Of a stretch of DNA of 64,000 bases, positions 26,995-32,047 are shown in pieces. A program made the translations under genes and the position numbers. The first letter of the stretch is position 1. Each line of letters begins with the position of its first letter. The stretch comes from Candidatus Eremiobacteria bacterium (GTDB lineage: Bacteria > Vulcanimicrobiota > Vulcanimicrobiia > Vulcanimicrobiales > Vulcanimicrobiaceae): positions 1,216,001 through 1,280,000 of the forward strand of contig CAVTRC010000001.1 in the NCBI GenBank assembly GCA_963737065.1. The letters run 5' to 3'. The notes beneath the pieces are model-generated. The model did not search any database, had not been told where the DNA came from, and saw only the letters and a list, made by a program, of their open reading frames with translations.

Positions 26995-27752
26995 ATGAAC
27001 GAGCCGACCACCCTCCTCGAAGCCGTTCGCATCTTTGCAGACCCGCAAGTCGCTCATGACTACTTCCTCGGCCTCCGCTTTCCAAACGGTATCGCCTGCC
27101 CTCGGCACGGATGCGGTTCGGCGGACGTAGCAAAGATTTCAAACCGTAACGCGTGGCGCTGCCGCGACTGCAATCGCCAATTTATGGCCAAAGTCGGCAC
27201 GATCTTTGAGGACTTTGAGGACAGTCCTATCGGCTTCGACAAGTGGCCCGCGGCTATGTGGATGTTGTCCTCATGCCGTAACGGTGTATCATCCTGCCAT
27301 CGCCCGGGCGATCGGCGTCTGTCAGAAGACGGCGTGGTTCATGCTGCACCGCTTGCGTCACGCTATGAAAACCAAGACCTTCGAGCGTCTTTCGGGCGAG
27401 ATTGAAGTAGACGAGACGTTCATCGGCCCGCGTGGTCGCTCGATGACTCGTCGCCATGTTCTCCCGCCATCGAAGAAAGGCGGACGCGGTCCGACGTTCG
27501 GAAAGACGACCGTCATGGGATTCCGCGAACGCGGCGGAGATGTTCGCGCGTTTGTCGTTAAAGACAATCGCCGGAACACGCTGCTTCCGAAAGTTTTCGA
27601 GAACGTAATGCCCGGCGCGACCGTCTACACCGATGTGCTCGGCTCTTATCACGGCCTACGCGAAGCGTTCGTTCACCAAGTCATCAATCATGCCGAGTCC
27701 TATGTTGACGGTCGCATTCATACGAACAGCATTGAAAACTTCTGGAGCGTGC
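26995..27752 (+). pseudogene. IS1595-family transposase, 5' part (frameshifted, IS21-interrupted)
   Basis: Zn ribbon CPRHGCGS...CRDC, FEDFED duplication, frameshift near 27297, EVDETFIG, VYTD, INH...Y, HTNSIENFWSV. Confidence 0.9.
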
Positions 27753-27800
27753 TGTTGACGCCGGCTGAAAATTGACCCACTTTGCTATGGGATCGCCGGT

Positions 27801-29616
<1,816 letters not shown>

Positions 29617-29666
29617 CGCGAACTTACGTTCGCGTCAGATCAGGCGGAACGGCTTAGTCAACTCTG

Positions 29667-30740
29667 TTAGGCGGCGACTTCAATACTATTCTGACTATTG
29701 CGCGCAAGTCGGTCTTGCATCGGTTGCAACCGATAAAACACAACCGTTGCCAGCTGCCGTTTGTGAGAACGCATCGCAGCTCGATGCGTCTTGCCCTCAG
29801 CTCGCTTACGCGCATAATAGAGTTGGCCCGGATGATTGCGCGTGCGGTTTTGGACCAACGCAATAACATGGAGTAATCGATTGAGCTGACGATCACCACC
29901 GGTGTTGACACGGACGCTCGCGTTGCGACCGCTCGAACACGGAACGGGCGCCGCCCCGGCGCGCATCGCGAAGCTCGCGGCATTGCGATACATGCAAAGA
30001 TTGCCGGCATGTCCAATGATCCCGGCAGCAACGACAATGGAAACGCCTCGAAGCTCCAGCAATTCGGGCGCAAGGCGCTTAACGAAAGGGCGCAGTTGGC
30101 GTTCCAGCTGATTCACTGCAGCATTGAGCCGGCGGATTTCCGAGATCGCCTCGTCGACCTCATCAGCAAGCGCATCACCGGTATAGCTCTTACCGCGATG
30201 ACCCGTTAGAAGATCTGCTGCATTCTGCAATGCAATTTCGGTGGTCATGTTCGAGGGCAGCGGTCCAATCGCCAGCCGCAATGCGGCATCCCGCAGCCGA
30301 TTTACAGCCTCCGTCCGCTGTCGCACAAGTCGATCGCGGCGATCATAACGTAACCGGACTGCTTCCTGTTCATCCAGACGTTCGCAACGCCGCAAGCGAT
30401 CGGATTCGCGCAGAACTGCTTCGGCAATCGCTCGAGCGTCGAGTGGATCGGATTTTCCTCTTCGGCTTGCGTGTTTGCGGTGACGTTTAGTGAACGAACC
30501 TGGAACCTCGTATACGACGGCGTTGCTTTTCAGCAGAGCATCGGCGAAGCCACGTCCGAACGAACCACTTCCCTCAAGACCCCATTCAACGGTGCCAAAC
30601 GACCGTGCTCTTTCGATCGCAGTCGCATACCCTGCGGCGTTCGTTGCAATGGTGATCTCCGAGAGCGCTTTCCCAACTCCATCAACGAATACGATGGTGT
30701 GAGAATCCTTGTGACAATCGACGCCCGCAACGACGCGCAT
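29667..30740 (-). CDS. IS110-family recombinase/transposase (DEDD RuvC + Tnp20 domain)
   Basis: GVDCHK, GLEGSG, KSDPLDA (DEDD tetrad), GAAPVPCSSG (catalytic Ser), GGDRQLN; AAGGAG RBS; intact 357 aa. Confidence 0.96.
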   Translation of the reverse strand: MRVVAGVDCHKDSHTIVFVDGVGKALSEITIATNAAGYATAIERARSFGTVEWGLEGSGSFGRGFADALLKSNAVVYEVPGSFTKRHRKHASRRGKSDPLDARAIAEAVLRESDRLRRCERLDEQEAVRLRYDRRDRLVRQRTEAVNRLRDAALRLAIGPLPSNMTTEIALQNAADLLTGHRGKSYTGDALADEVDEAISEIRRLNAAVNQLERQLRPFVKRLAPELLELRGVSIVVAAGIIGHAGNLCMYRNAASFAMRAGAAPVPCSSGRNASVRVNTGGDRQLNRLLHVIALVQNRTRNHPGQLYYARKRAEGKTHRAAMRSHKRQLATVVFYRLQPMQDRLARNSQNSIEVAA

Positions 30741-30764
30741 GCGTTCTCCTTTTATGCGAGGTTA

Positions 30765-30900
30765 CCGCAGACGTCGGCGATCCCTTATTGAGCATTTGCA
30801 CTCGGCTTACCAGCCAAAACGCGCTGCGGAAAAGACGCGCCTGCCGGCCATTCCACCCCAAGCCAATCCGACTGTCAATTTTGGAGCCAGAGCAGACGCA
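30765..30900 (-). ncRNA. predicted IS110 bridge RNA (target-binding and donor-binding loops)
   Basis: Two stem/internal-loop/hairpin modules. Guides AAAAUUGAC (30874-30882) and GGGGUGGA (30852-30859) match the target; UAAGCCG (30803-30809) and AUAAGGGA (30781-30788) match the donor junction. Confidence 0.78.
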
Positions 30901-30974
30901 CCCTAATCATACATATAAGGGGTCAATTTTCAACCGGCGGGGTGGGTCAACTTTACTCCGGCGCTAACACGTGC

Positions 30975-31048
30975 TAAAGAGAACGCTCGGCGGCACGTAC
31001 ATTTGCCCGCGTCCCAAACACCTCGATGCGTACTTAGACGAACAGATT
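30975..31048 (+). pseudogene. IS1595-family transposase, 3' part after the IS21 insertion (truncated)
   Basis: Rejoining across the TSD gives in-frame FWSVLKRTLGGTYICPRPKHLDAYLDEQ; the expected FRFN tail is missing. Confidence 0.88.
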
Positions 31049-31072
31049 AAATCTCTCGTTTGTTCCAAAAGC

Positions 31073-31094
31073 GCGTCGAAGACGTCTTCGACGC
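31073..31094. repeat. perfect 22-bp palindrome
   Basis: GCGTCGAAGACGTCTTCGACGC, 26 nt upstream of the hydrolase start codon. Confidence 0.8.
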
Positions 31095-31120
31095 CGACTC
31101 TGTAGACTAAGGAGCTCACA

Positions 31121-32047
31121 ATGAAAGCGTCTCCCCGAGTGCTGCTCGCCGCAGCCTTCTGTTTCGGTCTTGCGTTTTGGCCTCACACCGGAGCGTTCGC
31201 CAGTGCAACGCTGCCGCCGCTCCCGCAGCCGGCAGCCTCCTTCGATTCCGGGATGCTGCATGTCGACCGCTATGGCAACGGTTCAAAAGCGATCGTCTTC
31301 ATTCCCGGACTTGGCTGCGGCCCATGGAGTTGGGCTGAACAAATTCGCCACTTCTCGTCAACCTACACCGTCTATGCGATTACGCTTCCGGGATTCGATG
31401 GACGGCCGTTCACACCACAATCCGATCTCTTTGCGGCTTTCGATCGCGACTTCTGGGCGTTCGTCCGAACCCAACACCTCGAGAAGCCGGTAGTCGTCGG
31501 ACATAGTTTGGGCGGTACGCTCGCCTTTGAACTCGCCGAATCGCATCCGGAACGTCTGGGCGGCGTCGTCGCGCTCGACGGCTTGCCGGTTTTCCCGATG
31601 CTCGCGCAGTCTACGCCGGCTCAACGCGAAGCAGCCGCAACGAAATTGGCGTCGTCGATCGCGCAGCAAACGCACGATCAACTTCTGGCCTACGAAGTTT
31701 CGTACATGAAGCAGATCGGAACCGTGAACGACGATCTCGACACGCCGGTCGCGACGCTCGTGGCAAAGAGCGATCCAAACGCGATCGCGGCGTGGGGCGC
31801 AGCCGATTTGCGCAGCGATCTTCGCGACGGGCTTGTGAAAGCCGACGTACGAATCGTGGAGTTGATGCCGTACGCGCAGCCCAGTCCGTATTCGAAAGAT
31901 CAGACGATCGCATTTTACCGGCTTCTCGTTTCGGGCGCGCCAAAAGTGGACGTCGTTCCGATCGACGGCGCCCGTCACTTCGCGATGCTGGATCAACCGC
32001 AAGCGGTCGACGATGCGATTACGCGCTTCCTCGCAGCGGCTCCATGA
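31121..32047 (+). CDS. secreted alpha/beta hydrolase
   Basis: Signal peptide, FIPGLG, LPGFDG, GHSLGG nucleophile elbow, GARHFAMLDQP; AAGGAG RBS. Confidence 0.92.
   Translation: MKASPRVLLAAAFCFGLAFWPHTGAFASATLPPLPQPAASFDSGMLHVDRYGNGSKAIVFIPGLGCGPWSWAEQIRHFSSTYTVYAITLPGFDGRPFTPQSDLFAAFDRDFWAFVRTQHLEKPVVVGHSLGGTLAFELAESHPERLGGVVALDGLPVFPMLAQSTPAQREAAATKLASSIAQQTHDQLLAYEVSYMKQIGTVNDDLDTPVATLVAKSDPNAIAAWGAADLRSDLRDGLVKADVRIVELMPYAQPSPYSKDQTIAFYRLLVSGAPKVDVVPIDGARHFAMLDQPQAVDDAITRFLAAAP

Follow-up and report, generated by a model that had tools for sequence, protein, structure and literature searches.

A 64,000-nucleotide (nt) stretch of DNA from a Candidatus Eremiobacteria bacterium (assembly GCA_963737065.1, contig CAVTRC010000001.1, positions 1,216,001-1,280,000; hereafter the window) contains a nested IS110-group element of about 1.27 kb, located within 29646-30921 in the left end of an IS21-family element. 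Very probably, this IS110 element carries a bridge RNA that is aimed at the terminal repeat of IS21. Hereby, both target segments of the predicted RNA together specify AAAATTGAC-CC-ACCCC, i.e. the 16-mer AAAATTGACCCACCCC, which recurs as a terminal repeat of related IS21 elements. All support for this reading is computational and consists of the anatomy of the element, RNA covariation, guide-flank covariation, three independent occupancies of IS21 repeats and empty sites in relatives. Window coordinates are used throughout, and the IS110 element and its IS21 host both lie on the minus strand. The genome from which the window derives (own genome) comprises 3.08 Mb in two contigs (C1 and C2).

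Recombinase and left-end RNA

The recombinase gene is intact, as a first-pass annotation of the stretch had proposed. Its product contains the Pfam domains PF01548 and PF02371 (E 3.6e-25 and 2.4e-11, respectively) and passes the NCBIfam model NF033542, 'IS110 family RNA-guided transposase', with 159.5 bits at a cut-off of 140. The only relative of solved structure is IS621 (8wt6; phmmer E 2.4e-6), and the residues E56, D98, D101 and S270 align with the IS621 residues E60, D102, D105 and S241, for which catalytic roles are described (PMC11208158; this paper and PMC11208160 are cited here and below from parts of their text). The first aspartate, D8 in GVDCHK, lies outside the IS621 alignment and was read directly from the sequence. 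An identical protein is encoded by a second complete copy of the element in the own genome (copy B; the window element is copy A, see Table 1). Judged by these features, the protein appears to be an active-looking DEDD/Ser bridge recombinase. Moreover, the left end (~178 nt) is far longer than the right end (~19 nt) and holds the RNA, which fits the rule for the IS110 group (PMC11208160).

Homologues were searched by protein in 401 genomes of the phylum and found in 16 of them, the own genome included, with a best non-self identity of 63%; a single-protein search of genome contigs gave two loci only, and the phylum-wide genome search was used instead. The relatives referred to below are the loci L012-L040 and L071-L090 from related genomes and metagenomes, with protein identities of 48-66%; still closer proteins, at 78-82% identity, are P0002-P0005. 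The left ends of 14 relatives and two own copies were aligned (A1, 16 sequences), and the covariance model R1 built from A1 was then run on 26 loci outside this alignment. The A1 consensus consists of two modules, each of which is closed by a stem, continues with a short and conserved inner stem (UGGC with GCCG) and an internal loop, and is capped by a hairpin. In A1, 94.0% of the cells are paired compared to 80.7% in column shuffles, with 0 of 500 shuffles reaching 94.0%, and pairing falls to 29.9-53.8% when the partners are slid by 1-3 columns. Double (compensatory) changes are found in 17 of the 27 pairs. In 21 of the 26 further loci (18 with E <= 2e-27), R1 places the RNA immediately before the recombinase gene, and 94.6% of the cells in these hits are paired compared to 77.8% in shuffles. 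In the own genome, R1 has exactly three matches. A scan of 27000-32000 against Rfam 15 at E<=1 placed no family on the left end; a glutamine-II match obtained elsewhere in this region is at chance level and was rejected. The covariation of the stems, together with guides that match the element's own flanks and ends, supports the prediction of a bispecific bridge RNA made in the first-pass annotation, whose quoted junctions, closing stems, top hairpins and four guide segments are all present at their minus-strand places (Table 1).

Guides, flanks and the IS21 repeat

Guides and flanks were compared for 15 elements. Hereby, the left target guide agrees with its own flank at a mean of 8.0 of 9 positions (n=15), compared to 4.41 (standard deviation 1.23) for the flanks of other elements (n=210), and the only five cross scores of at least 8/9 all occur between sister elements with a common target. 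The right target guide, read as its complement, scores 5.33/7 against its own right flank (n=12) and 3.36/7 against other flanks (n=132). Covariation of guide and target, which had been put forward as a check on homologues, is thus observed. Matched pairs also occur in metagenome elements, with 9/9 in L082, 10/10 in L077, 10 on the left and 8 on the right in L025, and 9/9 on the right in L085. Likewise, the left donor guide changes with the right end, reading TAAGCCG in the window element and L028 and AAAGACG in most relatives, and the complements of both 3' guide segments extend past the junction into the left arm of the other partner. In the window element, L028, L033 and L023 the left flank is one base longer than the left guide; this extra base may form a one-base bulge in the pairing.

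The pattern of the IS21 left end was searched in 348 genomes of the same family and found in 48 of them, compared to three hits for a reversed control pattern. Thirty ends were read. One of them (L070) stems from a genome flagged as unpublished, and in another (L060) the inner repeat L2 is unreadable, as the sequence is given as N (masked) from its tenth base onwards. The empty left end in these relatives consists of the outer repeat L1, followed by GCCGGTTG and then L2. Of the 30 ends, 19 have an L1 identical to AAAATTGACCCACCCC, and the guides therefore spell a family-wide IS21 repeat, as the first-pass annotation had suspected; three such repeats are occupied in the own genome. L2 begins with AAAATTGACCCACC, the first 14 bases of the guide word, in 18 of the 30 ends, and in 16 it reads precisely AAAATTGACCCACCTG. 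Both repeats are uninterrupted in the 29 of 30 ends that are readable throughout.

The empty IS21 allele that had been called for is found in relatives as ...AAAATTGACCCACCTGA..., with A instead of the anticipated G after CCC. In the own genome there is no empty L2; all three related IS21 copies carry IS110. Two soil-metagenome contigs, which come from other organisms, part from the window sequence precisely at 30920, beyond which they read as an empty L2. A precisely excised IS21 allele is predicted to read ...AAAATTGACCCGCCTG....

Six sites in the own genome read AARRTTGAC-CC, three of them occupied and three empty. The occupied sites show a perfect left-guide match, followed by CCACC (CCGCC in copy A). 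Two of the empty sites are the L1 repeats in the IS21 hosts of copies A and B (AAAGTTGAC), which match 8/9 on the left and 7/7 on the right; the third is the right-end repeat in the host of copy A, with 9/9 on the left and then CCACTTT. A guide that needs both arms would produce this split, albeit in a sample of six. In both resident IS21 lineages L1 starts with AAAG (window 30939-30954; copy B, C1:73387), compared to AAAA in 25 of the 30 related ends. With this G the left guide no longer matches at 9/9, and the L1 repeats concerned are free of insertions; AAAG could be an escape variant or could have arisen by chance.

Junctions, copies and alternative explanations

For copies B and C, the simplest parse is a left target AAAATTGAC, a core CC and a right target ACCTG, with ...GCCGTT-CC-TTATATG as donor. 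This parse is consistent with the CCC found in the empty sites and needs no mismatch. CC is present at both junctions in copies B and C and, with an extra C, in copy A, whose left junction reads GACCCC/TTAT compared to GACCC/TTAT in B and C (four versus three Cs, the C of GAC included). The GCCTG to the right is a variant of the IS21 lineage that hosts copy A, also seen with copy E, while copy B and most empty sites have ACCTG. The junction strings of the first-pass annotation are thus present in the window, although one C and the GCCTG are particular to this copy or lineage.

Alternatively, the exchanged pair could lie one base further to the left, with CC in the target and TC in the donor, so that the left end starts with CTTATATG and the right end terminates in ...GCCGT. 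When the relatives, which share 1 nt for certain, are aligned by position, the only base always common to both junctions is the first shared C (G in L017 and L018), and the base preceding it is of target type on the left and T on the right. Their aligned circle junctions (..AAAGACG-G-T-C/G-T-TTAT..) place the always-shared base at the first shared C with a T before it on the side of the right end. L021 and L022, which interrupt an IS3 reading frame, would also be compatible with a TC overlap, provided that this frame resumes on the other side of the insert. On the other hand, the CC parse is free of mismatches in copies B and C, and the right guide read as TT-CC-ACCCC fits it as well. We consider a TC crossover a serious possibility that is nevertheless somewhat less probable than CC. 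The CC core of the first-pass annotation, one of two parses that fit, hence remains plausible and is somewhat preferred here over (C/T)C with a tolerated mismatch at the first position.

A different explanation for the location of the element is hitch-hiking, in which IS110 entered a single IS21 once and was then spread by IS21 transposing with its passenger. Copies A and E reside in IS21 copies that are 98.7% alike and have the GCCTG variant in common, and the 5-bp direct repeat GCACG found outside both IS21 ends in the window suggests that the nested IS21 may have moved as a unit. However, the two IS21 elements that host copies A and B share only 85.8% identity across 1897 bases, whereas their IS110 inserts differ at about 3 positions (~99% alike), and A and B thus represent two independent insertions. 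Copy C, moreover, occupies another position, as it lies within the outer repeat at the end of a third element of IS21 type, and hitch-hiking leaves unexplained why the guides spell the repeat. As the sole explanation, it is largely refuted and appears improbable. Still more improbable is a coincidental match of guides and flanks with site choice by the recombinase protein only: the unremarkable single-sequence folding energy would be in line with it, but the guides vary with the targets over about 25 distinct relatives, the stems stay paired via compensatory changes, and the guide mechanism is experimentally established for IS621 (PMC11208160, PMC11208158).

Several observations nevertheless weigh against a bridge RNA directed at the IS21 repeat, or against details of it. 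Folded as a single sequence, the left end reaches -55.3 kcal/mol compared to a shuffle mean of -56.7 (z +0.38) and thus shows no extra stability; single-sequence folding is therefore uninformative here, and the evidence for the bridge RNA comes from the relatives. The alignment of the 21 further hits (A2) was fitted to R1, which favours the structure of the model. The right target GCCTG of the window copy pairs only with two wobbles, and the left guide stops before CC (its next base is A), unlike the left guide of IS621, which includes the core (PMC11208160). Since only one base is always shared in the relatives, a strict identical 2-nt core is not general in the clade. Copy A has one C more at its left junction than copies B and C, which could reflect homopolymer slippage, an assembly error in a long-read homopolymer or a one-base register slip. 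Copies A and E belong to one IS21 lineage and could therefore go back to a single IS110 insertion copied by IS21. Finally, neither a circle junction nor an excised allele of the own strain was seen in the public runs at the locus, namely three soil-metagenome DNA runs (shares 0.11, 0.07 and 0.00) with five short contig pieces, no joints and no RNA run.

The host shows the hallmarks of the IS21 family, i.e. an IstA transposase, an IstB helper ATPase, terminal inverted repeats, repeated sub-terminal motifs and a short target duplication. Its left end reads TGTTAGCGCCGGAGT-AAAGTTGACCCACCCC... and its right end TGTTGACGCCGGCTG-AAAATTGACCCAC..., with ..CCACTTTG as the word of the right-end repeat. 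With regard to the remaining copies, C and D have lost the last ~20 codons and the right end at the same point to an opposite-strand IS481-like element (HTH_29, rve_3), whose junction at copy C lies at C2:575655 onward (L035:2551-3730). Contig C1 begins inside copy D, and the assembly thus breaks in the IS110 repeat. At the right junction of the decayed copy F, ..GCCGCT-CC-ACCTAGAG.., the first bases after CC fit the right guide; the rest of the flank is not IS21.

Table 1. Coordinates of the IS110 element, its predicted bridge RNA, the IS21 host and further copies (window positions unless a contig is named)
Feature	Position	Strand	Remarks
Left target	30922..30930	minus	AAAATTGAC; first half of IS21 inner repeat L2; identical to left target guide 30882-30874
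Left junction	30919..30921	minus	CCC then TTATATG; shared CC (putative core) plus one extra C, copy A only
Left end (LE), ~178 nt	30741..30918	minus	predicted to encode the bridge RNA; R1 match E 1.5e-37
-10-like TATGAT	30911-30906	minus	inside left end
Ribosome site AAGGAG	near 30751-30746	minus	inside left end
IS110-family recombinase gene	29667..30740	minus	intact, 357 amino acids; PF01548, PF02371, NF033542
Right end (RE), ~19 nt	29648..29666	minus	-35-like TTGACT 29661-56, left donor TAAGCCG 29656-50, then TT
Right junction	29656-29648	minus	TAAGCCGTT, then CC 29647-46, then GCCTG
CC common to left junction	29646..29647	minus	putative core, from sequence
Right target	29641..29645	minus	GCCTG, remainder of IS21 L2; ACCTG in copy B and most empty sites
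Target-binding module (loop 1)	30837..30899	minus	closing stem GCGUCUGC 30899-92 with GCAGGCGC 30844-37; hairpin 30873-61
Left target guide	30882-74	minus	AAAAUUGAC; identical to left flank
Right target guide	30859-53	minus	GGGGUGG, then AA 30852-51, complementary to last TT of RE (handshake-like)
Donor-binding module (loop 2)	30765..30829	minus	closing stem CCGCAG 30829-24 with CUGCGG 30770-65; hairpin 30803-30790
Left donor guide	30809-03	minus	UAAGCCG; loop 2
Right donor guide	30788-81	minus	AUAAGGGA; loop 2
Host IS21-family element with nested IS110	27753..30968	minus	ends TGTTAGCG... at 30968, TGTTGACG... at 27753
istA	28588-29616	minus	NF033546, 291 bits
istB	27801-28595	minus	PF01695, NF038214
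IS21 outer repeat L1	30954-30939	minus	AAAGTTGACCCACCCC
IS21 right-end repeat	27768-27780	minus	position as in the first-pass annotation
Copy A	29646-30921	minus	complete, in IS21 L2
Copy B	C1:72k		complete; same point of L2 as copy A
Copy C	C2:574k		in L1-type repeat (GTTAGCGCCGGAGT-AAAATTGAC/CC/TTAT) of a third IS21-type end
Copy D	C1:1-1050		at contig start, without left end
Copy E	own genome		truncated on 5' side, left side deleted; IS21 lineage as copy A
Copy F	C1:381875-382491		decayed IS110 remnant, 89-92% identical

Proposed mechanism, relatives and known systems

By analogy to IS621, the element would excise as a circle. The junction of RE and LE in this circle would assemble a promoter for the RNA and the recombinase, consisting of TTGACT (29661-56) and TATGAT (30911-06); counted from the sequence, the two are 8+2+7 = 17 nt apart, and the relatives show the same spacing. 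The left-end RNA, once made, would bind the recombinase. Loop 1 would then hold the IS21 repeat AAAATTGAC/CC/ACC(CC/TG), with the left guide AAAAUUGAC pairing to the bottom strand and the right guide GGGGUGG to the top strand, and the two further As beside the right target guide could pair with the element's own last TT, to which they are complementary. Loop 2 (UAAGCCG, AUAAGGGA) would pair with the joined RE/LE junction of the excised circle. Strand exchange would finally take place midway through the repeat, at an overlap of C or CC, so that the element comes to lie inside L1 or between L1 and L2 of IS21. We only infer that the RNA is transcribed, that circles form and that the recombinase is catalytically active, and the same holds for the precise dinucleotide of the crossover and for any consequences for IS21. 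A consensus scan further revealed TTGAAA, 16 nt and TATGAT across the left junction of copy A (30906-30933, minus; 10/12 matches), with the -35 contributed by IS21. The spacing of 16 nt results from the extra C of copy A and is 15 nt in copies B and C. Going by this pattern match, a copy integrated in L2 might be expressed without excision.

The relatives share the RNA architecture, the RE motif (TTGAC, 8-9 nt), the LE start (T/C)TTAT and the junction geometry with the window element; guides and targets differ. None of the relatives at L012-L040 and L071-L090 occupies an IS21 repeat, and tblastn of the window IstA and IstB against their loci detected no close IS21 around any of them, the matches being a distant IstA-like sequence (29%) beside L082 and L024 and an IstB-like sequence beside L010. 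A Pfam search of the flanks of 13 genome relatives showed other transposase genes beside or around eight. IS3-type rve genes are present at L012, L015, L017, L018, L021 and L022. IS256-type genes (Transposase_mut, E about 1e-128) are hit in their 5' region, on the right flank of L013 and the left flank of L014, and a second IS110-family gene adjoins L013 and L015. Among the 21 further R1 loci, open reading frames with rve, HTH_Tnp_1 or IstB domains flank six (L037, L085, L077, L025, L075 and L010). As these neighbours were counted without a background of insertion sequence density, they constitute a lead and not a statistic. Sites outside insertion sequences are seen at L016, L020, L023 and L028.

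Two kinds of IS3-associated site recur. An IS3-type OrfB (rve, HTH_21) follows just downstream of L017 and L018, which have the left guides UAAAAAAAG(U) and a left flank ending in ..TAAAAAAAG, a string that resembles the slippery (frameshift) heptamer of IS3. L021, L022, L037, L085 and L010 have inserted within IS3-type rve frames or at their ends, the codons at the site being ..(H/Y)(I/V)ES/FN.. (L021 and L022 are inside OrfB after the codons for ..IE(S)), and their guides match ..TCGAATC / ..TTCAAC... Hence, it is conceivable, although we would not yet bet on it, that a clade of IS110 elements in soil bacteria comprises RNA-guided hyperparasites whose bridge RNAs are directed at the best conserved sequences of other transposons, which would serve them as safe landing pads that replenish themselves. 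The targets observed in this clade are IS21 end repeats, the putative IS3 frameshift heptamer, the ..IESFN.. codons of IS3 OrfB and the 5' regions of IS256-type genes. In the own genome, AAAG in L1 of both IS21 lineages and an L2 insertion that creates the TTGAAA-16 nt-TATGAT promoter pattern would be hints of an arms race.

Other targets were noted as well. In the closest subclade, L071 and L074 (donor guide TAAGCCG) have the target ..TGACCACCAATT-TGAC/CACCAATT.., a short tandem repeat; no IS21 genes are found nearby, and the flanks contain a PIN-domain gene to the left and, to the right, the maturase domain of a group II intron. What seems to be one and the same element is present at no fewer than four metagenome loci (L084, L086, L087 and L090), where the left flanks, too, are of one kind (..GATTGAGCTAC/). 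A tRNA target at L084, L086, L087, L088 and L090, where the flank resembles part of a backward tRNA gene, was rejected, as ARAGORN calls no tRNA at the junction.

The mechanism and architecture described here are already known for the IS110 group, and the new part is the IS21-repeat target. None of the titles and abstracts listed in literature searches describes an IS110-family element aimed at IS21 repeats, although the supplementary target tables of PMC11187229 and PMC11208160 could hold such a case; 'IS21' is absent from the main text of PMC11187229. Bridge RNAs are predicted in 85.7% of catalogued IS110-group elements (Durrant et al., PMC11208160). The 'candidate new programmable recombinase' of the first-pass annotation is accordingly one compact orthologue among very many with a predicted bridge RNA (PMC11208160), whose overlap other than CT and 9+7 guide geometry could be useful for a tool, and calling it a parasite of IS21 amounts to a presumption about fitness. 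The element offers a clean natural example of how guides are written, with one 16-base word split over two guide segments of one loop. The occupied and unoccupied near-matches in one genome form a small natural specificity experiment. Taken together, the element and its relatives point to other transposons as a frequent home of RNA-guided insertion sequences.

Judging from a title, IS4321 and IS5075 reportedly target the inverted repeats of the Tn21 family. Like these, the window element is an IS110-family element with the end of another transposon as its specific target. In contrast to it, IS4321 and IS5075 belong to the IS1111 group, carry their guide RNA at the right end, possess inverted repeats in sub-terminal position and use the 38-bp inverted repeat of the Tn3 family as target, whereas the window element belongs to the IS110 group, holds its RNA in the left end and is aimed at the multiple terminal repeats of IS21. 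Transposon ends as targets, known from the IS1111 group, are thereby extended to an IS110-group element and to IS21 as the transposon that is hit.

Compared to IS621, as described in the parts of PMC11208160 and PMC11208158 cited here, the window element has the same kind of DEDD and Ser recombinase, a long left end that is predicted to encode a two-loop RNA, and an analogous donor loop. In both, the left guide equals the top strand of the left target and the right guide is complementary to the right target, and handshake-like extra bases beside the right guides match the left arm of the other partner (PMC11208158). The promoter is split between RE and LE in IS621 and, as predicted from the sequence, in the window element. 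The differences concern the protein, which is distant, the overlap, which is C or CC here and CT in IS621, and the guides, as the 9-nt left guide ends before CC and the right guide comprises 7 nt plus 2. The natural target is an IS21 end repeat here and a REP element in the case of IS621.

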